Source of the DNA: Acidobacteriota bacterium | Lineage (GTDB): Bacteria; Acidobacteriota; JAAYUB01 | Direction of reading: 5' to 3' | DNA length: 64,000 nt | Assembly: GCA_029565065.1 (NCBI GenBank) | Contig: JAKQOW010000032.1 | Location: 52,102-116,101 of the forward strand | Shown here: positions 4,046 to 62,303 of the stretch, piece by piece | Numbering within the stretch: position 1 is the stretch's first letter | How the letters are laid out: each line of letters begins with the position of its first letter | Position numbers and translations under genes: made by a program | Notes under the pieces: generated by a model | The model's input: only the letters and a program-made list of their open reading frames with translations | Database searches by the model: none | What the model was told of the DNA's origin: nothing

Positions 4046-6082
4046 ATGAGAATCACGCATTACCTGGCAGTGTTCCTCGTCACCACCCTGTTCATGGTGG
4101 CGATTTTTCTGCTGCTCTACAGCGCTACGCTGGCGTTTTCCATTGCGCTCCTGAGAGACATCTTCGACTCCTTCCTCGGCATGCTCAGCCGGTCGGCGCT
4201 GGCCGACACCGCCCTCTGGCTCATCCGGTTGCGTGACTCGGTCCACCCGAGTCTGCTGTTCATCGGATCGTTGGGTCTGACGATGCTGTTCCTTTATCTC
4301 GAATATATCATCCTGTCGGGCCGGGACGAGCACCTCCGCCACCTGCCGCTCGAGCTGCAGGCGGACACGCTGATGCGGGAGGGCCGGCTCCGCCGCGCCC
4401 TGCGCCTGTACAAGCAAATCGGCCGGTGGGACCGGGCGGCGGAGATCTACCGCCAGCGCCGCCAGTATCCCCAGGCGGCGCGCATGCTGGAACACCTGGG
4501 CAACGAGAGCCTCACCCGCGCCGGCGAACTGTACGAGGAGATGGGCCGGCTGGACCAGGCGCGCCGGACTTACGCCGCGGCGGGCCAATACTTCTACCAG
4601 CGACAGGAATGGGAAAAGGCCGCCAAGTACTACCTGAAAGCCGAGGACAAGGCGAGCGCGCTGGCGTGCTATGAGACGCACCTGCGCGACCTCCGGAGCC
4701 TCTACCCGCCGGAGCAGCTCCGGGAACGCTGCCAGAAGATCGTCCAGCTGGCCGACCAGCTTGGACTCCCCCTGAAGGCGGCCGCTTTCTGCGAGACCGC
4801 CCAGGACATTCCCGGCGCGGTGCAATACTACACGCAGGGGGGCAACTTCATCCGGGCGGCGGAATTGCTGCTGGCCGGCGGGGAGACCGACCAGGCGCTG
4901 AAAGTCATGAACAAGATCACGCCGGATCACAAGCAGTACACCGACAGCCTGGTGCTCATGGCCCGGCTCCACTTCCGCGACGAGCGTTACCAGGAATCGT
5001 TGAAACACTACGTCGAGTACTTCAAGCGGGTGAAACCTTCCGATGCCACCCTGGAGGAGTTCTTCCAGATGGGCCTCTGCCTGGAGAAACTCGGCCGGCT
5101 CAAGCACGCCCGCGACGTGTATGCGCGGGTGCAGAGCATCCGGCCTTTTTTCATGAACGTGGACGAGCGCATCGACGCGATCGACCACAAGTCCAGCGAG
5201 CCGGACACGATGAAGGCGATGCTGGACCAGGATGCCGCCACCAAGGATGCCGGGCTGTCCGACGATTTTCTGATCCGGCTGGGGGAGCGCTACACGGAAC
5301 TGGAGGAAATCGGCCGCGGCGGCGCGGGGATCGTCTACAGCGCGCGGGACAAGATCCTCGACCGCACCGTCGCTTTGAAAAAACTGCCCACGTCGGTCAC
5401 CCAGGATCCGGCCCGCCTGCAGGCCTTTTTTTCGGAAGCCAAGGCGATCGCCAAGCTCAACCATCCCAACATCGTAGCCATCCACGACATCATCAAGGCG
5501 GATAACGCCTACTTCATCGTCATGGAGTTCATCCGGGGCACCACCGTCGAGCGGCTGCTGGAGGTCAAGGGCGCCCTGTCGCTGAAGCTGTCCCTCTACA
5601 TCGCCCGACACATGCTGCAGGCTCTGTCCTACGCCCACCGCAACGGCGTCATCCACCAGGACATCAAGCCGGCCAATATCATGCTCAGCGACGACAAGAT
5701 CGTCAAGCTCACCGACTTCGGAATCGCCCGCCTGTTCCACGAACTGCCCGGCCACTCATCCGACATCGTCATGGGCACTCCCAAGTACATCTCGCCGGAG
5801 CAGCTCCAGGGGGCCCCCGTTGACGAGCGCTGCGACATTTACTCGTTCGGGATCACCTTTCACGAGATGCTCACCGGCATGCTCCCTTACCCCCTGGACG
5901 GCATCCTCCACCACCACCTGGTCACTCCGCCCATGCCGATCCGGTCCCACAACCCCTCGCTCCCGGTCGAACTGGAGCAGATCGTCCTGAAGTGCCTTGA
6001 AAAGGACCGCCAGCTCCGCTATCCTTCCGCCGCCGCGCTGTTCGAGGAGTTGAAAGCCGCCACGACCCGTCCGCCGAACTGA
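4046..6082 (+). CDS. membrane-anchored TPR-repeat Ser/Thr protein kinase (Hanks-type), kinase domain C-terminal
   Basis: N-terminal transmembrane helices. The middle is a TPR-like helical repeat region. The C-terminus carries the kinase motifs [37 protein letters not shown] and YISPEQ. Confidence 0.85.
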
Positions 6083-6557: not shown

Positions 6558-9500
6558 TTACTCCGCCAGCCGGGCGGCCAGCAGGCGGCAATCCAGGGCA
6601 TCGAGCACGCCGGACCGGTTGAGGTCGCCCATGTCCGGCCGGAGACAGGGCGGCGCGCCGGGCGCCAGGTTGCCCACGACCAGGTGCAGCAACAGGCTCA
6701 GATCCCGGGCATCGGACCGTCCGTCGCCATCCAAGTCGCCGTCGGGCTCCAGGACACAGCGGAATTCGCGGCCGCTAATCCGGACATCGTCCACGTACCA
6801 GCCGCCCGATCCCACCAGCAGGTCGCAGCCCAGGCGGAAGCGGATCTGGACTCGCCGGCCGCCGTACGCGTCGAGATCCACCCGGGTCTGGATGAACCCC
6901 TGGCTATCGCCGGACCAGGCGGCGCGCCGGCCCAGCGGGTTGAGCAGGAAGAAATCCAGTTCGTGTGTGTAGCCACCGGTGCTCATCACCGGACCGAGAT
7001 CGGTCCACGGCTCCGTGGCGGTCCGGATCTCCAGGACGCCGCCGTCAGACTCTGTCTCCAGATCGTAATCGTGCCAGAAGGTCAACGCCGCACCTTCAGG
7101 CACCTCGAACCAGGGGCTCAGTAACGAGTTGTCTTTGACGTTGTCTTCCGCGGAGGTGAACCAGCTGGTCACCGGAGAGTGGCTCCACCCGGCGACCGTC
7201 GACCAGTCGGTCATTCCCTGGTCGAGTACGTGGCTCCACCCGCTCGCTCCCGCTTCCACGTCGTCCGCGAATGTGATCCGGTCCACCTCCTCGCCCGCAG
7301 TCAGCGTCATCGGCTGCTCCCACTGCAGCGCGTCGCCTGCTTCGTTCCAGCATTCGATGGTCAGCTGCCAATCCAGGTGCGCGCCGCAGGCCAGCGCATC
7401 ATCCAGGATGACGCCGAACTCGCAGGCCGCGACGGCGCCGACCGCCAGTGTGGAGTGATTACAGGCCGCGGGGTCTATCTGGACCTCCGGCATGACAGCG
7501 GCCAGACTGGCGGTGACGTCCATGGCGGGACTCGTGCCGATGTTCTGCAGCGTCAGCTGCATGGTCACCGTCTCGCCCGGTTCCGGGATCCCGTCACCGT
7601 CGCCGCCCCAAAATTGCCAGTCGGTCGGTACCACCACCGGCCCCACCACCGGCATGAAGCAGAGGCTGAACCCGGGTTCCACCACCGGTTCACGGCAGGC
7701 GAATTGAATCCCTTTCGTCCCGTTGTAATCCTCGATCCCCACCGTGGCGTCGGCGCCGAAGTCATAGGCCGGGTCGCCGAACTCGGTGTCCTGGTAATTG
7801 AGGTGGATCTTGTGGGTCGATTCTTCCAGCGCGATCTGGAACGTGACCGCCCCGACCTTGTTGTAATGCGCCACGTTCAGCCAGGAGACCACGAACAGCC
7901 GATGAGGCGGCTGCCCGTCGACTCGGTGGCGGATGACCGACCCCGGCTTGGTCAGGTCCAGGTCGGTCCAGAGCGCCGCAATGACTGCGTTGGGATTCTC
8001 CGGCCGGGGGATCTGCGCGTTGCCGGCGTCCCAATCGTAGGCGTCGGCGAAGCGGAGCAACCCGTTCGTGGAGATCAGCACCTGCTCATACGTCTTGCCA
8101 TAAAACTTGAACGGAAACCCGATCGGTACGACCGCGCCCGCGTCATCCTGGCCGGCCAGGACGGCCGTGCCGCCCGTCGGCTCGATCCAGGCCGGATCCT
8201 GCGTCAGCATCAGGTAGTCCATCCGCTCCACCACCTCGCCCGGGACCACCTCCTGGTCGGCGGTCAGACCGGGCGCGCTGGCGGAATACGTGATCTCTGC
8301 GCTGCTCGGACCCGTCGGCACCCACCGTCCGGTGAACATCCCGTCGTCCGCCAGGAGGTCGGCGCCCTCGCCGTTGTCGCGCAGGGTGTAAGTTCGTGTA
8401 CCCGCCGCATCCACCACCCGGGCGGTGACGTGCGGCTGGTCCACCGGCTCGGCGCAATCGGTGCCCACCACGGCGCGCAGGGTCACGTCATCACCGTCCA
8501 TGACGATGAATCCGCCTGCCGGCTGGTCGGGGGCAAGCCGGACGGCTGTCGGGGTGCAGGTCCAGTGCAGGGCGGTCTCGGGGCATCCGAAGAGGGTGGT
8601 TTCAAAATAGATCCAACGGTAACTGCCGTCGCCGGCCAGGCCGGCCAGGCGCTGACGGGATTCGTTCAGGGCGAGACCGAGATTGTGGCGGAACTGCTCG
8701 AACACGGACCGCATGTACTCGTGGTCGAACACGTTGGACGTGCCGTTGGTGCCGCCGGACGCATACCAGCCGTAGCGCGTGTTCATCACCACGGCGAACG
8801 CGGCGGCGGTGGTGCCCACGGTCATCCGCTCAGCGAAACAGACGTCGTAGACGAAATTCCCCGGGTAGCAACCCTGGCTGTACACAAAAAACGGGCGGGT
8901 GTTGGTGAGCCGGCTGATATCGGAGTTGTACAGCTTCAGGCAATAGGTGCTGTTGGCGTGCCCCAGGTGGTTGACGATGTGCGTGTCGTCGGTGTTGAAA
9001 CAGGTGTCGATCAGCGTGTCGGCCGACCACTCCGCACCCGGCGCGTCATACAGGCGCTCGGCGGGAATCCCGGCCATTGCTCCGTAGACGACATCCTTGC
9101 TGTCGCCGCCCCAGGTCTGGTCGTCCAGCTTCTCGCCCAACAGCAGCGCGCGGAAGGGCGGCGCGGAGTTCTCGTAGGCGATGATCTTCTGAATCTGGGT
9201 GGTCGCCTCCGTGGGGCTGGAGGCGGCGATGCGGCCCACCGCCACCTCCGCGAACAGGTCGGTTTCATCGGCGGGTTCGCCGTACAAACCGTTGCCGTTC
9301 GCGTTCCAGTCGCCATCGAGGGCGGCAAAATAGAGATCGGTGGGGATGGCGGCGTCCACGGTGTCGCCGACCTTGCCATAAGCGCCCCGCCACGGGATGA
9401 TCTCGCTGTCGCCGCCGAGCACCACCCAGCGGGTGCCGTGGCTCTGGTATCCGGTGGTGATAAACGTGCGGAGCTTGTGTGCGTTGTCGGTGCCCGGCGT

Positions 9501-10280
9501 GGCGGCAAGGATGTCCTCGATTCGGGCGAGATGGACATTCAGCCCCCGACCCGCCTTGTGATCAGCCAGTTCCTGGAAGCTGGCTTCCAGCGCCGCGTTC
9601 GTCACGATCAGGTACTCCCACGCCGTGTCCAGCGTTTTCGCCTCCGGCGGGGCGTAGCCGTCCAGCGCCGCGGGATTGTCCACGAGCGCGGCCACTTCCG
9701 CCCGGTCATCCGCCAGCGGGCGTCGCATCGGCGCGGCCTTGGCCCGCGGCTCCGGCGCCAGCGTGAGCACGAGCCGCATCCGGGGGATGAACTGCAGCTC
9801 GCCGGCGGCCGGGTAGTACACCACCGGATGCAGCGTGAAGAGGGCGACCGGATACCCCTTGAGCCACTGCACGCCGGCCGCCGCGGCGCGGGCGTCGGGA
9901 AACGGCCCGGGCGCGCCGTAGATCCGTGGATCGGGCGCCACCGGTTCGGCGCCGGCCCCCGCCGTGGGGAACAGGCCGGGACAATGGGAAACCCGGACCG
10001 GCCGACCCAATACTTCCGGCACCTCGGTCTTGAGGTCGAAGCTCACCAGGCGGTGTCCCGCGGGGAGGAGCACCCGCCCGGTAAACACCGGCAGCATGGG
10101 CTGGCCGGGTTCCAGCGAATCCGGGCAACCGGCGACCCGAACGTCCACCCGGCCGTCCGGGCGCCGCTCCAGCCGCGGCCTTTCGAAGCGGTATTCCAGC
10201 ACGAGTTCCTCCGCGGCCATCCAAGCCGCGGCGAGAAACAGCAGGACCAGCGCACCCGACATCCGTCTCATGGACACCAT
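6558..10280 (-). CDS. secreted gingipain-like cysteine peptidase (family C25) with a C-terminal dockerin-type domain
   Basis: Signal peptide, then a C25 propeptide-like region. The catalytic region has a His in IVNHLGHANSTY and a Cys in FFVYSQGCYPGNF. It is followed by about 600 aa of β-rich accessory domains. The C-terminal 60 aa contain two Ca-binding repeats, DLDGDGRSDARDLSLLLHLV and DLNRSGVLDALDCRLLAARL, of dockerin type. Confidence 0.75.
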   Translation of the reverse strand: MVSMRRMSGALVLLFLAAAWMAAEELVLEYRFERPRLERRPDGRVDVRVAGCPDSLEPGQPMLPVFTGRVLLPAGHRLVSFDLKTEVPEVLGRPVRVSHCPGLFPTAGAGAEPVAPDPRIYGAPGPFPDARAAAAGVQWLKGYPVALFTLHPVVYYPAAGELQFIPRMRLVLTLAPEPRAKAAPMRRPLADDRAEVAALVDNPAALDGYAPPEAKTLDTAWEYLIVTNAALEASFQELADHKAGRGLNVHLARIEDILAATPGTDNAHKLRTFITTGYQSHGTRWVVLGGDSEIIPWRGAYGKVGDTVDAAIPTDLYFAALDGDWNANGNGLYGEPADETDLFAEVAVGRIAASSPTEATTQIQKIIAYENSAPPFRALLLGEKLDDQTWGGDSKDVVYGAMAGIPAERLYDAPGAEWSADTLIDTCFNTDDTHIVNHLGHANSTYCLKLYNSDISRLTNTRPFFVYSQGCYPGNFVYDVCFAERMTVGTTAAAFAVVMNTRYGWYASGGTNGTSNVFDHEYMRSVFEQFRHNLGLALNESRQRLAGLAGDGSYRWIYFETTLFGCPETALHWTCTPTAVRLAPDQPAGGFIVMDGDDVTLRAVVGTDCAEPVDQPHVTARVVDAAGTRTYTLRDNGEGADLLADDGMFTGRWVPTGPSSAEITYSASAPGLTADQEVVPGEVVERMDYLMLTQDPAWIEPTGGTAVLAGQDDAGAVVPIGFPFKFYGKTYEQVLISTNGLLRFADAYDWDAGNAQIPRPENPNAVIAALWTDLDLTKPGSVIRHRVDGQPPHRLFVVSWLNVAHYNKVGAVTFQIALEESTHKIHLNYQDTEFGDPAYDFGADATVGIEDYNGTKGIQFACREPVVEPGFSLCFMPVVGPVVVPTDWQFWGGDGDGIPEPGETVTMQLTLQNIGTSPAMDVTASLAAVMPEVQIDPAACNHSTLAVGAVAACEFGVILDDALACGAHLDWQLTIECWNEAGDALQWEQPMTLTAGEEVDRITFADDVEAGASGWSHVLDQGMTDWSTVAGWSHSPVTSWFTSAEDNVKDNSLLSPWFEVPEGAALTFWHDYDLETESDGGVLEIRTATEPWTDLGPVMSTGGYTHELDFFLLNPLGRRAAWSGDSQGFIQTRVDLDAYGGRRVQIRFRLGCDLLVGSGGWYVDDVRISGREFRCVLEPDGDLDGDGRSDARDLSLLLHLVVGNLAPGAPPCLRPDMGDLNRSGVLDALDCRLLAARLAE

Positions 10281-10416: not shown

Positions 10417-11772
10417 TCAGAACCGGTAGATGAACGTGCCCTGGGCGCGGACGCTCTGGCCCTCGTTCAAGTCGATGTAGCGGGTCCACCAGGGCGAGAC
10501 TTCCAGACCCACCTGGACCGCGCTGGTGATGCTGTAGTAGAAATTGCCGAACAGCGCCATGTTGCGCGAGCGGTTGCCGGAGGCCAGGTCGCGGTTGACC
10601 GGGTCGTCCACGGCGCCGCCCAGGTTGAACTTCCAACCCTTCCACGGACCGAAGCCCACAGCGGCCCAGCCGCCGATGCTGCGGATCTCGTTGAGCCGAG
10701 CCTTGTTGAAGCCCTGCCCCACCGCCGCCAGGTAGGTGTCGACATTGGCGCCGCGCCAGAACTCGCCCTGCAGCGTCACGCCCTTGGCCAGCGGCAGCTG
10801 GGCGTCCAGACCCCATGAATACGTGTCGAGGTCCACACTGTTGCCGGCGGCGTCCAGGTCGTACTCCTCCTGGCCCCAGTGGCCGTACACGCCCACCGTC
10901 GCCTTGCGCTTCTCGCCGAAGGGCAGCGTCAGCGCCAGCCGGCTCTGGACGGTAGGGAAGCCGGCGTCCTCGCCACCGTCGCCCGGATCGTAACCGGAGG
11001 TGTGGCCGATGGTCCGGACGAACGCGCCCTGGAGCTGCAGCTTGGTGTCGCCGCCCAGATCGAATCCCTTGGTCAGCCGGAACTGCGGCCGGCGGTAGCC
11101 CGGATTGCCGGTCCACCACATCACGGTGTAGTTGATGGTGTCGGGCAGTAGCGGCGCGATCACGTCCGAGGTCTGGCCGGCCAGCAGGCTGAAGTCATGC
11201 TCCGGCCACTCCAGCTTCACGAACGCGTGGCGCAGCATCGGCTGGGGCTTGTTCTCGCCGCCCTCCAGGCTGTAGAAGTCGATCTCGACGTTGCCGGTGG
11301 TCTTGATCGATCCGGTGGCCGGCCCGTTGATGTTGAGCCCCACCCGGGTCTGGTTGGCGGTCATGTTGAACTCGTCGTCCTTGCCGCCGGGGCCCTCGGG
11401 CAGCACCCACCGGGCGAAGTCGCCCACGTCGGTCCGGGCGGTGTCGTAGGCGGCGTCCAGCTTGACGAAGCCGTACAGCTCCACCGCCGGTTTCTTTTTG
11501 GCCGCCGCTTCGTCAGCTTTCGCGACGGCAGCCGGGGCCGGCGCCGGAGCGGGGGTCGGGGCGGGCGCGGGAGCCGGGGCGGCCGCCGGCTCGCGGAGCG
11601 CCAGCTGGCGCACCTCCGCAATCGCCACCTCGAGCTGGCGGATCTTTTCCCGCAGCTCCATGTTCTCTTTCTTGAGCGCCTGGAGCTCGTCCTGCACGGA
11701 GGCTCCCTGGCCCAGCACACAGCCGGCGGCGAGGCACAGCCACACTCCGGCGATGATGAGGGGATTACGCAT
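10417..11772 (-). CDS. outer-membrane porin with an N-terminal coiled-coil (DcaP-like)
   Basis: Signal peptide, then a heptad coiled-coil (LQALKKENMELREKIRQLEVAIAEVRQL), then a PAPAPAPTPAPAPAPA linker, then about 330 aa of alternating amphipathic β-strands ending GTFIYRF (C-terminal Phe). An AAGGAG Shine-Dalgarno precedes the ATG. Confidence 0.7.
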   Translation of the reverse strand: MRNPLIIAGVWLCLAAGCVLGQGASVQDELQALKKENMELREKIRQLEVAIAEVRQLALREPAAAPAPAPAPTPAPAPAPAAVAKADEAAAKKKPAVELYGFVKLDAAYDTARTDVGDFARWVLPEGPGGKDDEFNMTANQTRVGLNINGPATGSIKTTGNVEIDFYSLEGGENKPQPMLRHAFVKLEWPEHDFSLLAGQTSDVIAPLLPDTINYTVMWWTGNPGYRRPQFRLTKGFDLGGDTKLQLQGAFVRTIGHTSGYDPGDGGEDAGFPTVQSRLALTLPFGEKRKATVGVYGHWGQEEYDLDAAGNSVDLDTYSWGLDAQLPLAKGVTLQGEFWRGANVDTYLAAVGQGFNKARLNEIRSIGGWAAVGFGPWKGWKFNLGGAVDDPVNRDLASGNRSRNMALFGNFYYSITSAVQVGLEVSPWWTRYIDLNEGQSVRAQGTFIYRF

Positions 11773-12779
11773 GGCGGATACTCCTTATCGATATTTGAAT
11801 CTCTTCATTCCTGTCGTCGGCCCGTCCGAACAACATGGCGGAAGAACATTCCGATCGGTCACAATCGGAGGGTGCATTATGAGATCGTCTGCGGGTCCGA
11901 TATTCACTATCCAGAAGGCCGATGCCCTGACCGGCCAGCCACTCAGGGTCATGCTTGAACGCGCCATCGAGGACGGGCAAACCTCGGCATTGTAATCCAA
12001 CCGCAACCGGCGGGGTTCGGCAGCATCGAGCTTCGTCTGGTCGCGGATGACCGCCGTCCCGGTCCCGACCGCGATGACCGGGTGTTGACCTGCGGTGCGG
12101 GAGCCGGAGATGCAGAGGCCGCCGAGAGCGGGATCACCCGGATCGAATTGTCGGCGTCGATCGCCGCGTGCATGGATTTCTGCAGGAGGAGGTTTTCCTT
12201 ACGCGTGCACGCGGCCGAGGCAAACACCCTGGCATCATCAGGTCCGGGCTCTAACTGGAACCGTCCGGGTGCGCCGGCGACGCGGTCCGGCGCCTTGACT
12301 CCCACATGGCGGAAACCGATGCACCGTCTGTGCGGATCAGCGACTGAGCCGGGCGATCGGAACACTGGACGCAACTGAACCCGGACCGGCCCATGTCGCG
12401 CAGTTGCCCTTCGATGAGGCCGCCTGGAGTGTCCCCGGCTCTGATCATCTGGCCGTAGATGCGGTCATGATCCCTTTCCGCTAAGAATGCATTCAAAGAT
12501 CCCCCGGCGCATCGCCGCGATCCCCGGAGTCACCGTCACAAGCTGCAGCCCGACGGTTGCCACTTCAGCACAGGCAGTCTGGATCATCGTCTCGTTGACC
12601 CGGACCGGGCAGATGCGGCGGGCGCCCGTTCGGCGGAGCCGACGGCGGCAGCAAAGCACAGGCATACGCGCCCTCGGTGTCCGCGCCGCGGCGGAGATGG
12701 TCAGCCAGCGCTGGCTCGCCGCCTCCCGGCGGGTGCACGTGATTCTGATGGCTGGCATGGTCTGGCGCCATCATGGACG

Positions 12780-13166
12780 TCATTTCAAGATCTGACGGAC
12801 GGTTTCGATCAGCTTCTTGGGGGGAATCGGCTTTTCCAGAAAAATGTTCACCGGCCACGGCCGGTCGGTGATGTATTGGAACGTCTCCCCGTAATCGGGT
12901 GATTGGGACATCGCCGTCAGCATGACAATGGGGATTTCGCGCGTGGCCGGATCGCCCCGCAGCTCGTAGGCGAGGTCGAAGCCGTCGGTCTGGGTGTTCA
13001 TCATCACGTCCAGCAGGATCAGATCCGGGGGCTTCTGCAAGATTCGTTCCTTGGCCGCCTGCCGATTGCCGGCGGAACTGACTTCATATCCCTCGGCCTT
13101 GAGGGCGATCGAAACCACCGCCACCAGATCCGGATCGTCGTCGACAATCAGAATTTCTTGAGCCAT
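12780..13166 (-). CDS. single-domain response regulator (CheY-like receiver)
   Basis: ILIVDDDPD acidic pocket, a phospho-acceptor Asp in LILLDVMM, and a conserved Lys in EKPI. 128 aa with no output domain. Confidence 0.85.
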   Translation of the reverse strand: MAQEILIVDDDPDLVAVVSIALKAEGYEVSSAGNRQAAKERILQKPPDLILLDVMMNTQTDGFDLAYELRGDPATREIPIVMLTAMSQSPDYGETFQYITDRPWPVNIFLEKPIPPKKLIETVRQILK

Positions 13167-17637: not shown

Positions 17638-19374
17638 ATGCGACGCATCACCTGGTCGACCTGCCACCTGTCCCGCCGCGGAGCGCTGGTCGCCGGCCTT
17701 TGGCTGGGACTGGCTCTGGCGTCCACCGCCGCCGGCAAGGGCACCCTGCCACCACCCACGTCGGTGCTGGCTGAACTGACTGCCGCCGCCCGTTCGACCA
17801 AGCCGGCGGACGTGAAGCTCCGCCTGAACCGCGCGGACACCCTCCTGAACCGCGACGCCGCAGTCGACGAGCGGGACGACCTGGGCCGCAACGTCCTGCA
17901 CTGGGCGGTGATCACCGCGAGCACCGCCGCCCACCGGGCCGAGCAGGAACGCGGCATCGAGGTTCTGGAACATCTGCTGCGCCACGGCGCGGACCCCAAC
18001 TGTCGGGACGTGTTCGGGAATGTGCCGCTGGATTACGAAGGATTCGCGCCGTACGAGACCATCCAGGACCTGCTGCTGGAAAACGGGGCGGAAGGCCGGG
18101 AAGTCAACACGGTCGCCAACCGTCTGGCGGAACAGGTGGCGCAACTCGAGAGCGCCAGCGCCGCCGGCGACCTGGACCGGCTGCGCGCCTTGCTGGAGGC
18201 CGGCATTCCCATCGGGACCAGCCTCGACATCCGGTTGACATCCGCTGTCGGCAGCGCCCGGTCCCGTGCCGGCGATCTCGTCGAGGGCGTTATCTGCGCG
18301 CCGGTGACGGTGGCTGGCCGGGCCGTGATCGGCGCCGGGACCCGCATCCGCGGAACCGTGCTGCGCACCCAAAAATGCCGCAACGCCTACGACCGGGCCA
18401 ACCTCATGCTGGACCTGTGCGACGTGATCCTGCCGGACGGTGCCCATCTGTGCCTGACGACCCGGCTGCAGTCGGTGGACAACGCACGCGAGACGGTCCG
18501 CGACGGGCTGATCATCGGCATCGCCTACCCGCACAACACTGCCAGCCGCATTTCCATGGGATTCCACATGCTCGGCAAGCTGTACCCGGCGGTGGGTTAC
18601 GCCTTCGACAGCGCCATGTACGCTTTCGGCCTGACCTACCACCGCGAGATCGACTATCCGGCCGGCACCGAGCTCACCGTCCAGGTGCAGCTCCCCTGCC
18701 GGTTCGCGCCGCCCGCCGGTGTGGTGCCGTGGCCGGAACTGAACCTCGACGAGGCGACCGCCGCGCAGCTGTGCGGCAGCCCCACCCGCACCGAGTCCGC
18801 CGACGGCCGGCCCGGCGACTGTGTCAACATCGTGCTGCTCGGAACCGCCGCGCAACTGCGGCAGGGATTTGAAACCGCGGGCTGGACCCCGGCGGAGAAG
18901 ACGGGCATGGTCTCCGGCGCCAAAACGTTCCTCGCCGTCCTGCAACAGAAGGGCTACGCGACGGCGCCGGTGTCCACCTTCCTGATGGGCGACCGGGCGC
19001 CGGACTTGGTGTTCCAGAAGCAGCTCAACACCTTCGCCAAGCGGCATCATGTCCGGATCTGGCAGCTGCCTGACCCCGTCGGCGGCGAGACGGCCTGGCT
19101 GGCCGCCGCCACCCACGACGTGGGCATCGGCGCGGAGAAAGCCGGGCTGTCCTGGTACCACCGGATCGACTCTCATATCGACCGGGAGCGGGACAAGATC
19201 GCCGCCGATCTCATGTTCACGGGGCTGCCCCGGGGCGTCTGCTGGCTGGACCGGCCGGACTTACCACGCACCGCCAAGAACGCCACCGGGGATGATCTGA
19301 TCACCGACGGACGGATGCTGGTGCTCGCCTTCCCGGCGCGCGCGGCGACCGCCGACACCGATTCGGCCGATTAG
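17638..19374 (+). CDS. periplasmic ankyrin-repeat protein with a C-terminal LssY_C-like domain
   Basis: Start at MRRITW, with GGAG 8 nt upstream. The ORF-track start at 17410 would overlap the divergent outer-membrane gene. Signal peptide, then ankyrin repeats (GRNVLHWAV, LLRHGADPNCRDVFGNVPL), then a C-terminal region (NTFAKRHHVRIWQ...) resembling the LssY C-terminal domain. Confidence 0.6.
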   Translation: MRRITWSTCHLSRRGALVAGLWLGLALASTAAGKGTLPPPTSVLAELTAAARSTKPADVKLRLNRADTLLNRDAAVDERDDLGRNVLHWAVITASTAAHRAEQERGIEVLEHLLRHGADPNCRDVFGNVPLDYEGFAPYETIQDLLLENGAEGREVNTVANRLAEQVAQLESASAAGDLDRLRALLEAGIPIGTSLDIRLTSAVGSARSRAGDLVEGVICAPVTVAGRAVIGAGTRIRGTVLRTQKCRNAYDRANLMLDLCDVILPDGAHLCLTTRLQSVDNARETVRDGLIIGIAYPHNTASRISMGFHMLGKLYPAVGYAFDSAMYAFGLTYHREIDYPAGTELTVQVQLPCRFAPPAGVVPWPELNLDEATAAQLCGSPTRTESADGRPGDCVNIVLLGTAAQLRQGFETAGWTPAEKTGMVSGAKTFLAVLQQKGYATAPVSTFLMGDRAPDLVFQKQLNTFAKRHHVRIWQLPDPVGGETAWLAAATHDVGIGAEKAGLSWYHRIDSHIDRERDKIAADLMFTGLPRGVCWLDRPDLPRTAKNATGDDLITDGRMLVLAFPARAATADTDSAD

Positions 19375-20879
19375 TACCGCCGCTGGAAAAACGCCGGCGG
19401 CGGCGCCGCGGGATCGAAACCGGGCACCCAGCGCGCCACCTGATCCGCCCCCTGGCTGAGGCGCCGCACGCAACGGGCGCTGAAATCGTCCAGCAGCCGG
19501 CGGGCCTTGTCTTCCTTCCCCTGGCGCGCCAGCTCGGCGGCGCGGCGGCGGACCTGCCGCCACTCCTTCAACTCCTTTCGCTCCAGCCCGGCCCAGTGGG
19601 CGCGGATCCGTCGAATCACCTCGTCCGACTCGCCCCAGCGGGCTTCCAGGTTCCGCGACACCGCCGCCAGCCGCCACCACAGCGACTCCTTCTCATAAGC
19701 CCCCCCTGCTCGGGTCAGTTCCTCCGAGAGCCGGAGGTCCAGCGTCGGAAAGAACGGGACATACGCGTTGAGACACGGCACGTGCAGGCACGTCCACAGG
19801 GTGCCGCCCAGGCCGTCGGCCATACCGGGCTCGGAGACCGCGATCATCGAACCCACGGTGCCGCCATAGCAGATGGTGCGCACCGGAATCCCCTCCAGCA
19901 GGGAGCCAGGCAGGGAACAGTGCGGATCGACGCCCGGCGTGTGCGGCCGGATCGAGCGCCCGTCGTCGGTCCGGAAGGTCCAGGTCTCGAAGTGGTCCCG
20001 GAGCACGGCGGCGATCCCTTCCACCGTGACCCGGCCTTCGATCCGCCGCATCCGCTCCATGCCCCGGCGGTAACGCATCTCGTTATAGTGGGTGTTGTCC
20101 GGGCCGTGATAATCCTTGCTGTATGAGAGCCGGAAACTGAATCGCCCGTTCTCCTCACGGTACTGCCCCTGGGCGCGGGCGTGTTCGATGAGCTCGCGGC
20201 GGCGCAGCCGGAACCGGTCCGAATCGTCGGGCAGGTCGGGGTCGGTGATTTCGAACCGGTTGGCCCGCACACAGACGCCGTCGGTCACCCGGACGGCCGC
20301 CCAGCGGTTGCCGGTGGTCTCGATGATCCAGATCTCGGCGGGATCGGCGACGGTATAGATCTCGGGCACCCGGCTGTGATGGCGGGCGATGAGCGCGTCC
20401 ACCAGGTCCACCGCTTCCCGGGCGGTGCGGCAGCGCTCCAGAATCAGGCGGGTGATATCGTTGTCATGGAGGGCCGGCCCGTCGAAGGTGTCCCAGGTAT
20501 TGCCGTCGTTGTTGGCCACGCTCACCTGGTGGCGGTTCATGCCCATCCCCACGCCCCAGCGCCACAGCCGGTCGTCCCGGTTCCGTTCATCCATGGATTT
20601 GAAACCAAGCAGCTGCCAGGTCTGGCGGGCGGCGTCTATGGTGATGAACTGCATCGTCTGTGTGGCGTCCGCGATATTCTCCCCGTCCGGCTGGAAGTGG
20701 AGGATCTGGCCGGAGTTGACGGGGTAATCACGGTTTTTGCCCAGGATGGTCACGCCGTCGCGGGTGGCGCGCCCGGTGGCGCCCACCATGGTGCAGTCGG
20801 CGGCCGCGACCTGGGTCGCCAGCAAGACCGCCACCAGGAGGATCCAGCCGACAATGGTCCATACGGTGCTACGCTTCAT
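19371..20879 (-). CDS. secreted C69-family dipeptidase (Ntn hydrolase)
   Basis: A signal peptide is followed immediately by the nucleophile Cys in AADCTMVGATGRATRDGVTILGKNRD, the C69 hallmark. 502 aa. Confidence 0.8.
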   Translation of the reverse strand: MKRSTVWTIVGWILLVAVLLATQVAAADCTMVGATGRATRDGVTILGKNRDYPVNSGQILHFQPDGENIADATQTMQFITIDAARQTWQLLGFKSMDERNRDDRLWRWGVGMGMNRHQVSVANNDGNTWDTFDGPALHDNDITRLILERCRTAREAVDLVDALIARHHSRVPEIYTVADPAEIWIIETTGNRWAAVRVTDGVCVRANRFEITDPDLPDDSDRFRLRRRELIEHARAQGQYREENGRFSFRLSYSKDYHGPDNTHYNEMRYRRGMERMRRIEGRVTVEGIAAVLRDHFETWTFRTDDGRSIRPHTPGVDPHCSLPGSLLEGIPVRTICYGGTVGSMIAVSEPGMADGLGGTLWTCLHVPCLNAYVPFFPTLDLRLSEELTRAGGAYEKESLWWRLAAVSRNLEARWGESDEVIRRIRAHWAGLERKELKEWRQVRRRAAELARQGKEDKARRLLDDFSARCVRRLSQGADQVARWVPGFDPAAPPPAFFQRRY

Positions 20880-20968: not shown

Positions 20969-23110
20969 TCAGTAACCGTAAGCCGCCACCACCGCCTCGG
21001 GGCCGATGTCATTGCCGTTCTGATCGATGTGGGCAAAGTTGTAGTTGTTCCCGTTCGTGAGTTTGATATGGAACGCCCGGTACATGCCGATGGGCAACCG
21101 GTTGGTCTTGAATTCCTTGATGGCCGAGCGCGGCACTTCAAAGTCGTCCGAGCGGCCGTCGATGGAGCGGGCGGTCCGGTACACCACCCGGTCGGGAAAG
21201 ATGGACAACTGTCCGACGCAGAACAGCGTGAAGTCCCCGCTGTGGTCGTGACCCACGAGGAACGTTTGCGCCTGACTCATGACGGCGGCCTGCTGCTCCG
21301 CATTCTCCAGATTGCTCATCAGCTGCCGGTAGTCACCGTTGGCGGGGAAAAACTGCATCAACAGCCGACACAGGCGCTTCGCGGACGCCAGGTCGCCCGA
21401 GTTGATCTGCGACTGCATCTGGCTGTGGACCATGGAGACCGCGTCCTGCTGCAACTGCAAAGCGTACGCGTGGCCGGGATCGCGCCGGAGAATCTCCCCG
21501 GTGAGCTGCAGCACGTTGTTCCCGGGTGGTTCGATGAACCGTCCCGCGGAATACGCCTGGTAGGCCTGGGTGGACAAGGCCTGCAGCGGATCTTCCACGG
21601 GTGTTTCTCCACCCGAGCCGGGCTGGTCGCCTTTGTTCGCCCATTTGCCGGAGTCGGGCGGCTCCTCCGACGGCGGTGGCGGCGGGACCGGTGTCGGTTG
21701 CGGCTTGGCATCTTTCCGCCCCTTGTCCGACTGCGCCGCGCCGCCGGGAAGCACGGGGAGCGTGAGCGTGCCGGTCGGCTGGCTCGATGACGGGCTGGCG
21801 GCCGGCAGGGACGCGGGGGTTGTCACGGGCGGAGTCTGGGTGCCGCCGGAGCTGCCGCCGGCCACCGTGGTGGAGGCGGTCGGCGTCTTGGGTGACGGTT
21901 TGAGTAACACCGCCAGCACCACGACCGCCAGAGTCACGATGATCAATCCGGCGGCGGCAACACCTCCGATTATCAGCACCTTCTTCTTGCTGGTGTCGGG
22001 CCGCGCGGCGGGGAAACCGGTGCCCAGCCGCGAGTCAAACACGGTGGCGCCGGGAATCTGGACACCCTGGGTGCCCGGCGGATACGCCTGGGTGCCACCC
22101 GGATATGCCTGCGTCCCGGCAGGATATGCCTGCGTCCCGGCAGGGTACGCCTGGGTGCCCGGCGGGTAAGCCTGTGTTCCGGCAGCGTACGCCTGGGTGC
22201 CCGGCGGCGGCGGGGGCGTTCCCGCCGGGCGGGCCGGGGCGGCGCCCGTGGCGGCATAGGCGGCGGTGGCGCGGGGCGGCGGCGCCGTGCGGAGGGCCTC
22301 CTGCAACGCCGCGCCGAGCGCCTGCGAGAATTCCTCAACGGTCTGGTAACGGGTGCGCGGGTCCTTCTCCAAAGCGTGCAGAACCGCCCGGTCGAACACC
22401 TTGGGCAGTTGCGGCAGGACCTTGGAGGGCGAGGGTGGCGGCGTGCGCACGTGGGCCTGCATGATCTCGAAGTCGGTGCTCCCCCGGAACGGCACCGTGC
22501 CGGTGAGCAACTCGAAGAGCGTGATGCCCAGCGCGTAGATGTCACACCGGTAATCGGTCTCCTTGCCCTGGATCTGCTCCGGCGACATGTAGTACAGAGT
22601 GCCCACCTGCAAACCGGTCTGGGTGAGGCGTGACTGGCCCATCACCCGGGCGATGCCGAAGTCCATGACCTTGACGATGCCTTGCCGGTTCACGATCATG
22701 TTCGACGGCTTGATGTCCCGGTGCAGGATGCCCATCCGGTGGGCCTGGCTCAGGCCGAACAGGGCCTGCTGGAACAGCGGCACGGCCTCATGAAAGGGGA
22801 CGGCACCGCGCTGCCGGATCATCTGCTCCAGGTTCATCCCTTCGACGTACTCCATCACCATGAACAATTGGTCCTGGTGGCGGAAGAAATTGTAGAGGGT
22901 GCACACGTTGGGGTGGTTGAGCTGGGCCTGGGTCTTGGCCTCGGCGAGAAAGCGCTGGATCAGGCTGGCTTCCTGCGACAGCTCTTTCGACAACACCTTG
23001 ATGGCGACGATGCGGTCCAGGTTGATGTCCACCGCCTTGTACACCGTGCCCATGCCGCCCTGGCCGATTTTTTCCAGGATTTTATAGTGGTCGATGACTT
23101 GACCGATCAT
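20969..23110 (-). CDS. transmembrane Ser/Thr protein kinase (Hanks-type) with an extracytoplasmic C-terminal domain
   Basis: N-terminal kinase motifs GQGGMGTVYKAVD, VAIKVL, HRMGILHRDIKPSN, DFGIA and YMSPEQ. Then a Pro-rich linker with 7-aa repeats, one transmembrane helix, and an extracytoplasmic domain of about 330 aa. Confidence 0.85.
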   Translation of the reverse strand: MIGQVIDHYKILEKIGQGGMGTVYKAVDINLDRIVAIKVLSKELSQEASLIQRFLAEAKTQAQLNHPNVCTLYNFFRHQDQLFMVMEYVEGMNLEQMIRQRGAVPFHEAVPLFQQALFGLSQAHRMGILHRDIKPSNMIVNRQGIVKVMDFGIARVMGQSRLTQTGLQVGTLYYMSPEQIQGKETDYRCDIYALGITLFELLTGTVPFRGSTDFEIMQAHVRTPPPSPSKVLPQLPKVFDRAVLHALEKDPRTRYQTVEEFSQALGAALQEALRTAPPPRATAAYAATGAAPARPAGTPPPPPGTQAYAAGTQAYPPGTQAYPAGTQAYPAGTQAYPGGTQAYPPGTQGVQIPGATVFDSRLGTGFPAARPDTSKKKVLIIGGVAAAGLIIVTLAVVVLAVLLKPSPKTPTASTTVAGGSSGGTQTPPVTTPASLPAASPSSSQPTGTLTLPVLPGGAAQSDKGRKDAKPQPTPVPPPPPSEEPPDSGKWANKGDQPGSGGETPVEDPLQALSTQAYQAYSAGRFIEPPGNNVLQLTGEILRRDPGHAYALQLQQDAVSMVHSQMQSQINSGDLASAKRLCRLLMQFFPANGDYRQLMSNLENAEQQAAVMSQAQTFLVGHDHSGDFTLFCVGQLSIFPDRVVYRTARSIDGRSDDFEVPRSAIKEFKTNRLPIGMYRAFHIKLTNGNNYNFAHIDQNGNDIGPEAVVAAYGY
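22065..22215 (-). repeat. seven tandem 21-nt repeats (encoding AGTQAYP units) inside the kinase linker
   Basis: Repeated ggatatgcctgcgtcccggca-like units can be seen directly. They translate to PGTQAYPAGTQAYPAGTQAYPGGTQAYPPGTQ. Confidence 0.6.
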
Positions 23111-23747: not shown

Positions 23748-25397
23748 TCATTCCACCCGGAAGATCGCCGCCTGCTTGCTCCCCAGGATGATCCGGTCGC
23801 CGCTCTTGACGAAGTTCTGCTGGACCCGCGGCGAGTTGATGTCGTTGATGAACGTCCCGTTCGTCGATCCCCGATCCTCCAGCAGGAGACCTTTGGGGCT
23901 CGGGGTGAGCAGCGCGTGCACCTTGGACACGTGGTCGTCCGGAACGACCACCGTGCATTGGGACGGATCGCGGCCGAAGATCAGGCCCTTGGACGGTATC
24001 TCCATCACTTTACCGGCACTGGGGCCCTTCTCGCAGACCAGCCGGCCGAAGCTGCCCACCTGCTGGCGCTGCGACTGGACATCCACGACCGTGGCCCGCA
24101 TCTCCGGGGTGCCGGCGGCCGGCCGCGGGGGCGGCGGAGCGGCTTTCTTCCCGCGCGCCGCCAGGATCCCCACCACGCCGACGATCACCAGCAACAGCAA
24201 CCCGCCTCCCACGATCGCCAGGATCGTGCCGTACCGGCTGAAGAAGGTGGGCGGATGGGCGGTGAGCCATTCCTGGCATTTGACCTGGATTCGTTTGGCA
24301 TCCGGCTGGTTGGGCATCAGGCGGAGAATCTCGTCGCACTTGACGATCGCTTCCTCGTAATCCTCGTCGAAGTAGAGATCCAGCGCCTGTTGCCACAGGC
24401 TGTCGATCAACCCGCGTTTTGACTGGATGCCGGCGGCGCTGATGAATTCCTTGGCCGTGTTGATGGGGACGGCGAAATTGAATCCCTGGATGGGAATGGC
24501 GCTCTGGGCGCCCGTGGGGGCCAGGCTGATGAACGTGGCGATGCCGATCACCTCGCCGCTGTCGTTGAAGACCGGGCCGCCCGAGTTGCCCCACGTGACC
24601 GGTGCGTCAAACTGGATGACCGGCGTGCCCTTCACGTCCAGCTTCAGGCTGGACACGTGGCCCGAGGTGATGGAGGCTTCGAGCATCGAGGACTGGCTCA
24701 GGTAATCGTGCTGGCTCACCACGCCGGGGTAGCCGGCGGGGAACACCGCCGCCTGGAGCGAAACCGCGGCGGAGTCACCCAGCGGCACCGTGGGCAGGTT
24801 GCCCTGCTCGATCTTGAGCACCGCGATATCCTTGCCCGACTCTTCCTCCTCGTAGCTGAAGATGCCTTCGGTCTTGCCGGCAACGGGGGTGATCGGCGGG
24901 CTGTACTGCTTGATCTCGGCGGGGAAGTACTGCCAGTTCGACAGGAACACGAACAGCTGCTTGGACACCTGAAACACCGCCGCGGCCGCGAGCTGCTGGA
25001 AGACCGACACCTTCTCCTCCTGGGTCAGGGGCGCGCCTTTCCGCTGCTCCAGCGCGGGAAAGATGTGCTGCTCGAGGATCTGCACCAGTGCCTGAGACTT
25101 GAGCGAGTTGTTCTCCTTGCTGTGGTACTCTTTCACTACATGGCCATTGGTCACGATGTAGCCGTCCGGATTGACGATGAATCCGGAGCCGGATCCACTC
25201 ATGTCCATGGGATCGAACTCCTGCAGGCCTTCATCCGTCCGGATCGCCACCTTGACCTGTATCCGCGAGTAGACCATGACCACGCCCGGCTTGACGGTGA
25301 GGATGTTCTTTTCGCGCGCCCGCTCATCGGCGGCGGTCAACGACGCACCGAGAGCCAGCACCAACAGAAGGGCGAGAACGCACCCGCGCTGCGACAT
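23748..25397 (-). CDS. trypsin-like serine protease (S1C/DegP-like) fused across the membrane to a C-terminal FHA domain
   Basis: Signal peptide, then a protease domain with His in TNGHVV and Ser in TWGNSGGPVF. One transmembrane helix (ILAIVGGGLLLLVIVGVVGILAA). The cytoplasmic tail has an FHA core (LIFGRDPSQCTVVVPDDHVSKVHALL...GSTNGTFIND). Confidence 0.8.
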   Translation of the reverse strand: MSQRGCVLALLLVLALGASLTAADERAREKNILTVKPGVVMVYSRIQVKVAIRTDEGLQEFDPMDMSGSGSGFIVNPDGYIVTNGHVVKEYHSKENNSLKSQALVQILEQHIFPALEQRKGAPLTQEEKVSVFQQLAAAAVFQVSKQLFVFLSNWQYFPAEIKQYSPPITPVAGKTEGIFSYEEEESGKDIAVLKIEQGNLPTVPLGDSAAVSLQAAVFPAGYPGVVSQHDYLSQSSMLEASITSGHVSSLKLDVKGTPVIQFDAPVTWGNSGGPVFNDSGEVIGIATFISLAPTGAQSAIPIQGFNFAVPINTAKEFISAAGIQSKRGLIDSLWQQALDLYFDEDYEEAIVKCDEILRLMPNQPDAKRIQVKCQEWLTAHPPTFFSRYGTILAIVGGGLLLLVIVGVVGILAARGKKAAPPPPRPAAGTPEMRATVVDVQSQRQQVGSFGRLVCEKGPSAGKVMEIPSKGLIFGRDPSQCTVVVPDDHVSKVHALLTPSPKGLLLEDRGSTNGTFINDINSPRVQQNFVKSGDRIILGSKQAAIFRVE

Positions 25398-41740: not shown

Positions 41741-43666
41741 ATGAAGAAATTTATGCTGACTCTGACAATCCTCGCCGCACTCGGTGCCGGAGTGGCGGCC
41801 CAGGGCGGACCGTTTTCCGGCAACGCCGAGGTCTACCTCCAGCTCACCCCGGCGACACCCGCCATCAACAGCACGTTCGAGGTGGACGTGTACGTGGACT
41901 TGACCGGGATCACCGGTTCCGGATCCACCGCGGCAGCGCTGGGCGGATTCGCCATCCCGGTTGCCTTCGACAACTCCCGGCTGACTTTGACATCCGTCGA
42001 GGCGGGCACCAGCGGCTCCTTCACTCCCGGCGACCTGGTGTTCACCGACCTGCCCCGCGCCAACGCCCGCGGATTCGTCACCGTGGTGAACACGCAGACG
42101 GCCTCGGGCACGCCGACCGGCATCGTCCACGTGGCCACCCTGACCTTCCAGACGGGTCCCCAGGGGGGCCGGGTCCGGTTCAACGTCAACTCCGCCCGCA
42201 CCATCCACGAGGGATCGCTGGCTTCGACCTACACCGCCGCCAACGGTGGGCCGGATGAGATTCCTTACGACGATGAGGCCGCCCTGGTCACCATCGCGAC
42301 CGGAGGCACATCCTACAGCATCTATTATCCGGTTTTCATCTCCGGCGACGCCGACTTCATGGGCGTCACCGTGGTCAACGAGGGCGTCGCCACGGAGAAC
42401 CTGAACTTCCGGGCTTACAATCCCGCCGGTCAACTCATCACCCAGGCCGGCATGACCAACCCCAACGTGAGCGACGGCCCCCTGGCGCCGCTGCAGCAGT
42501 ATGTCCGTATGAGCCACAACCTCTTCGGCAGCTCCGGCGCGCTGGACATCGAACATGGCTGGATCGAAGTGACCGCCAACGAGCACAACCTGAGCGGCTT
42601 CTTCCTGATCGGCCACTTTGAGGGCGCGGACATCACCCAGATGGACGGCGCCGAAGTGGGACACCAGGTCGCCTCCCGGGTGATCTTCCCGATCCTGGGC
42701 AAGGACGCCGCCCGCGACACCGACTTGTACGCGATCAATCCCGGCACGACGGCCGCCGCCGGCAACTTGCTGATGAAAGACAATCTCGGCAATACCGTCC
42801 AGACCATTCCCGTCAACATCCCGGCGCACGGCGTATACGAGGGCACCTTCACCGCGAACACCCTGGACCGCTACTTCGACCTCACCCTGACCTCCGGCGA
42901 GGTGCTCGGCTTCCAGTTCTTCGGCAACGCCAACGCCCTGGCCGGCCTCAACGCCCAGGCGGCGGCGGACACAACGGCCAACATTCTGTACGACGCCCAC
43001 TTCGCCTCCGGCAACTACGGGATCCGCTATTTCACGGAAATCAATGTGATCAACGCCTCCGCCCAGGTGGCCAACCTCACCTTGCACCTGATCAACGACG
43101 CGGGGAGCGAGATCGTCACTCCCGTCGCCCGCACCCTCAATCCCGGCGCCCAACTCCGGGTGATGGGACACACCCTGTTCGGCTTGCCCGATCCACTGAC
43201 CGCCGCGGATGGCGTGAGCGGTTCCGTCATGATCGAGAGCGATCAGGGTGTGGTCGGATCCATCACCTTCGGTGACGCTCAGAACGGCCTCTTCCTGGCC
43301 AGCTTGCCGTTGCTCTCCACCTCGGCCGCCAAGCGCGAAATCTACCTGGACCACGTGGCGATCGGCCTGATCGGCACGGTCAACTACTGGACGGGCATCG
43401 CGCTGGTCAATCCCAGCCGGACTCGCACCGCCTCCATCAACCTTCAGCTATACGATCAGAACGGCAACCTGACGGCTCAAACCGCCACGCCGGTCGAGTT
43501 GGCTCCCGGTCAGCGCACGTCGCGCATGCTCCCCAACTTCTTCCCGGGATTCAGCGGCAGCCAGTTCGGCGGCTTCGTCCGGCTGACTTCGGACGTCGAA
43601 GTGTTCTCCTTCATGCTCTTCGGCGACGTCAGCCTGAATTTCCTCGCGGCGGTGCCGGTTCGGTAA
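41741..43666 (+). CDS. secreted protein with an N-terminal cohesin-like domain and C-terminal β-sandwich repeats
   Basis: Preceded by an AT-rich region. Signal peptide MKKFMLTLTILAALGAGVAAQG. The segment FEVDVYVDLTGITGSGSTAAALGGFAIPVAFDNSRLTLTSVEAG...GIVHVATLTFQT follows the cohesin pattern. The antisense 638-aa ORF is Gly/Val/Asp-rich junk. Confidence 0.7.
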   Translation: MKKFMLTLTILAALGAGVAAQGGPFSGNAEVYLQLTPATPAINSTFEVDVYVDLTGITGSGSTAAALGGFAIPVAFDNSRLTLTSVEAGTSGSFTPGDLVFTDLPRANARGFVTVVNTQTASGTPTGIVHVATLTFQTGPQGGRVRFNVNSARTIHEGSLASTYTAANGGPDEIPYDDEAALVTIATGGTSYSIYYPVFISGDADFMGVTVVNEGVATENLNFRAYNPAGQLITQAGMTNPNVSDGPLAPLQQYVRMSHNLFGSSGALDIEHGWIEVTANEHNLSGFFLIGHFEGADITQMDGAEVGHQVASRVIFPILGKDAARDTDLYAINPGTTAAAGNLLMKDNLGNTVQTIPVNIPAHGVYEGTFTANTLDRYFDLTLTSGEVLGFQFFGNANALAGLNAQAAADTTANILYDAHFASGNYGIRYFTEINVINASAQVANLTLHLINDAGSEIVTPVARTLNPGAQLRVMGHTLFGLPDPLTAADGVSGSVMIESDQGVVGSITFGDAQNGLFLASLPLLSTSAAKREIYLDHVAIGLIGTVNYWTGIALVNPSRTRTASINLQLYDQNGNLTAQTATPVELAPGQRTSRMLPNFFPGFSGSQFGGFVRLTSDVEVFSFMLFGDVSLNFLAAVPVR

Positions 43667-60617: not shown

Positions 60618-60636
60618 GCGAACCGCACGAGGGATC

Positions 60637-61860: not shown

Positions 61861-61868
61861 GAGTAGCT

Positions 61869-62300: not shown

Positions 62301-62303
62301 TCC

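Follow-up and report, generated by a model that had tools for sequence, protein, structure and literature searches.

Proteases that carry dockerins are already established, C25 peptidases outside the clostridia included, as are cohesin–dockerin pairs that take no part in a cellulosome. Dockerin-bearing S8 and cysteine peptidases occur in clostridia and ruminococci, a cysteine peptidase of R. flavefaciens among them, and the double dockerin dDoc_0689 of a C. thermocellum S8 protease (8X39/8X3A) has been proposed as an anchor to a cell-bound cohesin, and not to an enzyme scaffoldin (PMC12484212). In the Cloacimonadota, Ca. Stygibacter encodes both a gingipain-like C25 peptidase that ends in a dockerin and a scaffoldin of cohesins and carbohydrate-binding modules (CBMs). 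This scaffoldin is 3,755 amino acids in length, with tandem cohesins, CBM2 and CBM3, along with a C-terminal domain that is conserved and that the authors inferred to attach it to the cell surface; dockerins are also borne by GH18 and GH57 glycoside hydrolases, and the authors took the system for a cellulosome-like complex with polypeptides among its substrates (PMC8542988). In a rumen metagenome, 12 of 56 dockerin-bearing proteins with a non-carbohydrate annotation were tied to protein catabolism (PMC6487960), and non-cellulosomal cohesins and dockerins have been surveyed across life's three domains, according to the citations of Peer et al. (2009) given by PMC8542988 and PMC6487960. Here we describe a 64-kb stretch of an Acidobacteriota genome (contig JAKQOW010000032.1; the window) that encodes a C25 peptidase ending in a dockerin-like module and a second secreted protein with a cohesin-fold domain. 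An earlier note on this DNA had presented a dockerin on a protease as an oddity, which is overstated given the precedents in PMC12484212 and PMC8542988.

We think it fairly probable that this peptidase, a Sec-exported C25 endopeptidase, docks through a calcium-folded dockerin on a cohesin, for which a 641-residue protein encoded elsewhere in the window is the best candidate, and that the two form a non-cellulosomal complex of two components. That a non-cellulosomal cohesin–dockerin system is present, as the earlier note had proposed, is well supported at the level of predicted features by the dockerin tail, the cohesin fold and the recurrent adjacency of dockerin genes in related lineages. The system probably organises non-carbohydrate enzymes.

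The peptidase gene and the features of its C-terminus are as follows.

6558..10280, minus strand: coding sequence of the 1240-residue secreted C25 peptidase with C-terminal dockerin (open reading frame (ORF) listing; relatives of the same length)
6561..6740, minus strand: dockerin module, residues 1181-1240 (Dockerin_1, and the tail profile against solved dockerins)
6702..6737, minus strand: calcium-binding loop 1, DLDGDGRSDARD, residues 1182-1193 (D, D, D, D and D at loop positions 1, 3, 5, 9 and 12)
6591..6626, minus strand: calcium-binding loop 2, DLNRSGVLDALD, residues 1219-1230 (D, N, S, D and D at the same positions)

The reading frame is exactly as the earlier note had given it, on the minus strand, and the two 12-residue loops with their following helices are present at the residues listed. 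The tail has the layout of a two-segment dockerin. Both loops carry oxygen donors at positions 1, 3, 5, 9 and 12, each is followed by a Leu-rich helix, and the linker is of 15 residues. Twelve full-length relatives of 1224-1272 amino acids, with 39-92% identity, and a few shorter ones share the same C-terminal module, which is thus retained down to 39% identity. An alignment of 14 tails (that of the window and 13 relatives) shows no variation at the first Asp of either loop or at the Asp of loop position 12.

The Dockerin_1 family (PF00404) matches residues 1181-1238 over profile positions 2-56 of 57, at 17.8 bits in the whole protein, and when the tail is scored alone it reaches 26.2 and 25.9 bits (last 65 and 68 residues, respectively), above the Pfam gathering threshold of 22.9 bits. 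All 14 aligned tails match Dockerin_1 at E ≤ 0.1, with a best E of 5.7e-9, and this is the signature that the earlier note had recognised. EF-hand_1 and EF-hand_6 match at most six of the 14 (best 3e-4), FG-GAP calcium-loop models also match some, and Pfam scans of the dockerin tails gave no match to the thrombospondin type 3 repeat (TSP_3). Against solved structures, a profile of the tails finds dockerins with E from 1.4e-12 to about 1e-6, headed by the C. thermocellum S8 protease double dockerin 8X39 at 1.4e-12, while troponin C is at 0.02 and calmodulin no better. We therefore rejected a generic EF-hand or thrombospondin type 3 repeat, and the outcome that the earlier note had held out as damaging, a sub-threshold dockerin score with a better one for another calcium-binding fold, is not what the scores give. 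The tail is supported, on sequence comparison, as dockerin-like rather than as either of these. A regular expression for EF-hand and dockerin loops, run over all six frames of the 64-kb window, matches these two loops alone, and a hidden Markov model of the relatives' tails matches only the C25 ORF (E 4e-29; next best E 2.1), so that the dockerin feature is real and no product of chance.

As read from the sequence, the two segments differ at the positions that usually contact cohesin, so a single binding mode seems more likely than a dual one. Most of the aligned tails retain a pair of cysteines (PC...DC), C1212 in the linker and C1231 in the last helix, and a disulfide clasp between them within the module is a matter of speculation. 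A further cysteine, C1175, lies just ahead of the module. A word-indexed search with the dockerin profile returned eight proteins, of which the best two are fragments of C25 relatives, and gave no listing of other carriers.

The candidate partner was pointed out by the earlier note as cohesin-like, a description borne out by a predicted cohesin fold and by profile links to proteins that pass PF00963. Its features are these.

41741..43666, plus strand: coding sequence of a 641-residue secreted protein with an N-terminal cohesin-fold domain, the candidate dockerin receptor (ORF listing)
41801..42340, plus strand: cohesin-fold domain, residues 21-200
42341..43663, plus strand: β-rich C-terminal region of about 440 residues ending in ...AVPVR (weak DUF5719 match, conserved end)

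In the predicted model, residues 21-200 form the nine-stranded flattened β-sandwich (jelly-roll) of about 140 residues expected of a cohesin. No solved cohesin exceeds 17% sequence identity, and the protein's sequence by itself retrieved nothing from the PDB. A profile of the 27-member family has a cohesin as its sole near-match in the PDB (E 0.14), and a profile of the N-terminal domain brings this to 0.017. An exhaustive profile search with the cohesin domain over 1.84 billion representatives returned 176 relatives, including proteins with four to seven tandem copies that pass PF00963 at 26-105 bits, and two of 26 family members match Pfam Cohesin weakly themselves (best E 1.4e-4). Thus, on the model and these indirect sequence links, and despite failing the Pfam sequence test, we take residues 21-200 to be a true, if divergent, representative of the cohesin fold family. 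Single-sequence AlphaFold on the whole 641-residue protein gave no usable model (predicted local distance difference test score, pLDDT, of 37).

The protein has 27 full-length relatives at 38-97% identity, and those with names are all metagenome-assembled genomes (MAGs) of Acidobacteriota. DUF5719 matches the protein of the window weakly and does so, in the family, in 16 of 26 members, and the final five residues, AVPVR, are invariant or nearly so. As read from its sequence, the region of about 440 residues looks like some four repeated β-sandwich units; a paralogue of it that has no cohesin domain is found in one relative (L033, 2208-3551). Another related protein, P0183 (L039, 4368-6680, from an SRA assembly), has three cohesin modules and a C-terminal dockerin in 770 residues and resembles an adaptor scaffoldin. 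A cohesin domain 97% identical to that of the window lies on a 2.4-kb contig (JAKQDQ010000059.1, L014) binned as 'Verrucomicrobiota'; this label is probably a binning error, since all the other named relatives are Acidobacteriota.

How regularly do cohesin and dockerin genes stand together? In two relatives (L012 and L033), and in a third (L028) where the locus is cut off by truncation, the gene directly downstream of the cohesin gene is one for an amidohydrolase with a signal peptide and an N-terminal dockerin (30.9 bits), the three cohesin proteins being 61-65% identical to one another. An FG-GAP repeat protein with a terminal dockerin (37.5 bits) is encoded directly upstream of the cohesin gene in L019. 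In L038 a 176-residue single-cohesin protein is followed by a protein of 1091 residues with an N-terminal dockerin, and in L039 a three-cohesin protein is preceded by one of 1322 residues with a dockerin-like segment at its end. L020 and L026 each have a dockerin ORF at a distance of 8 kb from the cohesin gene. On the peptidase side, a DUF11-repeat protein ending in a dockerin adjoins the C25-dockerin relative of L011. There are at least four independent cases of immediate adjacency between cohesin and dockerin genes, and by a rough estimate these are hard to put down to chance because dockerins are otherwise sparse, with one in the 64-kb window. In the relatives, dockerins were seen on proteins that include an amidohydrolase, one with FG-GAP repeats and one with DUF11 repeats, and none of the carriers is a carbohydrate-active enzyme.

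The window itself has exactly one dockerin and one cohesin module. In a related MAG (GCA_040768985.1, JAXGLX010000002.1) both genes lie on a single contig of 5.0 Mb, about 37 kb apart and in the gene order of the window. The earlier note had remarked on the lack of glycoside hydrolase and CBM genes nearby, and a scan of the window's 25 largest ORFs turned up no such family. A cellulosome was therefore rejected, on the basis of the single cohesin and single dockerin in the window, the absence of glycoside hydrolases and CBMs from those 25 ORFs, and the non-carbohydrate carriers in the relatives.

The remainder of the peptidase is laid out as follows.

10212..10280, minus strand: probable Sec signal peptide, residues 1 to ~23, MVSMRRMSGALVLLFLAAAWMAA (read from the sequence)
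9681..10211, minus strand: prodomain-like N-terminal region, residues ~24-200 (weak Propeptide_C25 match)
8574..9614, minus strand: Peptidase C25 catalytic domain, residues 223-569 (Pfam PF01364, E 9.9e-51, 173.5 bits)
8958..8960, minus strand: catalytic His441 (NHLGHAN), aligned to His211 of RgpB (1cvr)
8868..8870, minus strand: catalytic Cys471 (YSQGCYPGN), aligned to Cys244 of RgpB
7791..8081, minus strand: NIDO-like β domain, residues 734-830 (Pfam NIDO, 23.9 bits, cutoff 25)
6768..7607, minus strand: β-rich accessory region, residues 892-1171, including a MAM / choice-of-anchor-J-like domain

The catalytic domain, which the earlier note had correctly placed in the C25 family, aligns with the solved gingipains RgpB and Kgp, and His441 and Cys471 are kept in all 12 aligned full-length relatives. 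The N-terminus is a probable Sec signal peptide, with a basic n-region, a hydrophobic core and small residues before the predicted cut. Since the dyad is conserved and the N-terminus reads in this way, the protein looks like an active, exported cysteine peptidase. Two further domain claims of the earlier note stand in part. The propeptide is weak in the protein of the window (Propeptide_C25 at residues 121-176, 11.3 bits under a Pfam cutoff of 22), and has a precomputed PF08126 match in several relatives (e.g. P0008-P0010 and P0012). As to the β-rich accessory domains, NIDO and MAM both fall below threshold (InhA-like_MAM at residues 1038-1168 has 25.4 bits against 26.9), and the NCBIfam choice-of-anchor X model passes, at 26.6 bits over a cutoff of 25; choice_anch_J matches weakly, and close relatives have a precomputed PF06119 (NIDO) match. 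The choice-of-anchor families are so named because they co-occur with interchangeable C-terminal anchors. The NCBIfam model myxo_dep_M36 matches in part over residues 892-1171 (E 2.4e-30), a stretch equivalent to the accessory region found in myxosortase-dependent M36 peptidases. Looked up exactly in the assembly collection, the protein gave no match, and identity as a PorU-type sortase of the type IX secretion system (T9SS) was ruled out by a score of 35.9 bits against an NCBIfam cutoff of 420.

More distant C25+MAM proteins of equal size, in Eisenbacteria, have C-termini of FlgD_ig type and are named as T9SS type A sorting-domain proteins. Because these sorting-type C-termini stand exactly where this clade has its dockerin, the comparison suggests that the tail is a swappable localisation module. 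In the mechanism that we propose, the protease would be exported by Sec and might cross the outer membrane through a type II secretion system (T2SS), for which the window contains a cluster at 58803-63279 on the plus strand.

58803-60617, plus strand: GspE-like ATPase (T2SSE plus MshEN)
60637-61860, plus strand: GspF
61869-62300, plus strand: GspG-like major pseudopilin (KDPWQADYVY motif)
62304-62801 and 62779-63279, plus strand: two minor pseudopilin-like ORFs

The T2SS is a plausible route of export across the outer membrane for the dockerin and the cohesin proteins alike. Outside, the dockerin would fold on binding Ca2+ and then plug into a cohesin, most likely the single one of the 641-residue protein. 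The resulting complex would place the protease on a carrier protein outside the cytoplasm, and in the relatives other non-carbohydrate enzymes may be placed in the same way.

Several observations weigh against docking of the protease on the 641-residue protein. In the full-length peptidase Dockerin_1 scores 17.8 bits, under the gathering threshold, and in the 641-residue protein Pfam Cohesin (PF00963, threshold 24.1 bits) has no match at E ≤ 1. No cell-surface anchor or sorting signal was recognised in the latter, so that display on the cell surface, which the earlier note had proposed, is no more than a possibility. The two genes of the window are 31 kb apart among housekeeping genes and form no operon, and no dockerin gene occurs within 10 kb of the cohesin gene in the clade of the window, L016 or L013. 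Among distant relatives, the assemblies with the C25-dockerin gene (GCA_054037515.1, GCA_053992795.1 and GCA_054001555.1) have none in common with the cohesin-relative assemblies compared (GCA_036704725.1, GCA_964436005.1 and JAFGRT01), a non-overlap that says little when the MAGs are fragmentary. Further cohesins or dockerins may also lie outside the 64-kb window.

The best placed of the alternatives, which we nevertheless consider unlikely, is that the dockerin is functional and has as its partner some other cohesin in the genome, a multi-cohesin scaffoldin for example, with the protein at 41741-43666 serving other enzymes. The separation of 31-37 kb would fit this, as would the existence of relatives of the cohesin domain with three to seven tandem modules, and the dockerin genes adjoining cohesins in relatives encode the amidohydrolase, FG-GAP and other proteins, never a C25 peptidase. 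Yet one cohesin and one dockerin are all that is visible in 64 kb, and no scaffoldin of this lineage occurs in any locus that we examined. A second alternative, improbable in our judgement, is an orphan calcium-binding tail that stabilises the enzyme or binds a non-protein component of the envelope or matrix, the cohesin-fold protein being unrelated. The surveys of non-cellulosomal genomes by Peer et al. in 2009 are said to have met many dockerin-like modules without matching cohesins, and the sub-threshold score in the whole protein and the EF-hand and FG-GAP matches to some tails point in the same direction. However, the helices and linker fit the dockerin profile as well as the loops do, and the module is conserved across a long divergence; moreover a cohesin-fold protein is found in the same genomes, and its family repeatedly neighbours dockerin genes. 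Finally, a tail serving mainly as an export or sorting signal removed after secretion, as T9SS C-terminal domains are, with no stable tether, is very improbable, since it does sit where related C25+MAM proteins have sorting-type C-termini but has no sequence likeness to T9SS C-terminal domains and, in Pfam and NCBIfam scans of the C25 protein, no match to PF18962 or another T9SS sorting domain, the window has a T2SS cluster and no T9SS genes were seen in it, and we know of no dockerin that acts as a secretion signal.

Both genes have housekeeping genes as neighbours. Genes for succinate dehydrogenase, a radical-SAM protein, menaquinone-related functions and topoisomerase I surround the cohesin gene, and those around the C25 gene encode a YjbQ-family protein, a Ser/Thr kinase and ribosomal proteins. 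A conserved operon around the C25 gene was rejected, its neighbours being housekeeping genes that differ between lineages. In relatives at 44% and 83% identity the C25-dockerin gene lies near the genes for ribosomal proteins S6, S18 and L9 (L003, L010, L040, L041 and L001/L004), and this retained position indicates vertical inheritance within the clade and not recent transfer. Directly upstream of the C25 gene, at 10417-11772 on the minus strand, is a gene for a secreted protein of 451 residues, in which an Ala/Pro-rich linker joins an N-terminal coiled coil and which weakly matches the outer-membrane protein DcaP; the adjacency is kept in close relatives (L001 and L004-L006) and lost in distant ones (L003, L010 and L040). 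Beyond it, between the porin-like and response-regulator genes, about 1 kb (11780-12780) has no convincing ORF and no Rfam match. At the equivalent place about 5 kb of L001 and L004 is taken up by genes resembling those of formate dehydrogenase and NADH dehydrogenase, and then comes rubrerythrin, which is a difference in gene content between close relatives. An Rfam scan of the window found three tRNAs and nothing else.

Elsewhere the window encodes a C69 dipeptidase (19371-20879, minus strand), a trypsin-like protease fused to FHA (23748-25397, minus strand) and two Ser/Thr kinases (4046-6082, plus strand, and 20969-23110, minus strand). One of the kinases, with TPR repeats, is near the C25 gene, with a small YjbQ-family gene in between. 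The additional peptidases fit a protein-degrading lifestyle. The isolate names of the named relatives, which are Acidobacteriota MAGs, point to anaerobic bioreactors or sludge digesters as their origin, and one metagenome match is labelled as sediment metagenome.

Putting these elements together, we can entertain a broader proposal, tentative and short of likely: that in this Acidobacteriota lineage, mostly from digesters and sediment, an undescribed cohesin family invisible to Pfam, present as a single N-terminal module on a DUF5719-like protein of about 640 residues ending in AVPVR, might be the hub of a T2SS-exported 'peptidosome' that recruits the C25 protease, an amidohydrolase and FG-GAP/DUF11 proteins by their dockerins. 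If true, this would be a diderm cohesin–dockerin system devoted to non-carbohydrate substrates, with a new type of carrier or anchor. Should the two proteins of the window bind one another, they would constitute a compact cohesin–dockerin assembly in a Gram-negative, non-cellulolytic phylum, directed to proteolysis instead of the degradation of plant cell walls, and would contribute a divergent cohesin family that escapes current domain models. Counts of cohesins in metagenomes may then be underestimates, which bears on the apparent excess of 'orphan' dockerins. Orthogonal cohesin–dockerin pairs are also useful parts for designer enzyme complexes.

How does the system compare with those already described? 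Like the clostridial type I dockerins (A. cellulolyticus DocCel5, 5NRK; C. thermocellum Xyn10B, 1OHZ/2CCL), to whose structures the tail profile matches with E from 6e-10 to 1e-7, the module consists of two loop–helix segments of about 22 residues with D, N and S ligands, at the C-terminus of a secreted enzyme. Unlike them it is carried by a protease and not by a glycoside hydrolase, in an Acidobacteriota MAG where neither glycoside hydrolases nor CBMs were found nearby, has the C1212/C1231 pair, and has two segments that are not alike in their cohesin-contact residues. With dDoc_0689 it shares a protease as carrier; there, however, a cellulosome producer has a serine protease bearing two dockerins in tandem, whereas here a cysteine peptidase of family C25 has a single dockerin in a non-cellulolytic gene context. 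The same fusion of Peptidase_C25 to a C-terminal dockerin is found in Ca. Stygibacter, likewise an uncultured bacterium outside the Firmicutes; in contrast to its scaffoldin, the sole cohesin in view here is a single divergent module in a 641-residue protein with no CBM and no recognised anchor.

The gingipains RgpB and Kgp of P. gingivalis (MEROPS C25) have in common with our peptidase the His/Cys dyad, an N-terminal prodomain and β-sandwich domains beyond the catalytic domain. In these proteins the chain closes with a T9SS C-terminal domain, and it is this pathway that attaches them to the outer membrane. The similarity to them is low (E 1e-7 to solved gingipains), and here the C-terminus is a dockerin. 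The cohesins with which that of the window was compared, OlpA and OlpC of C. thermocellum (3UL4/4DH2), 2XDH of A. fulgidus and 2VO8/2JH2 of C. perfringens, are likewise single or non-cellulosomal. OlpA and OlpC are anchored to the cell wall through SLH modules. In the window, by contrast, the cohesin goes undetected by Pfam Cohesin and is followed by the DUF5719-like β domains that end in AVPVR. What is new in relation to all of these is the phylum, a cohesin family missed by Pfam on an unusual single-cohesin carrier, and a set of dockerin carriers that is purely non-carbohydrate.

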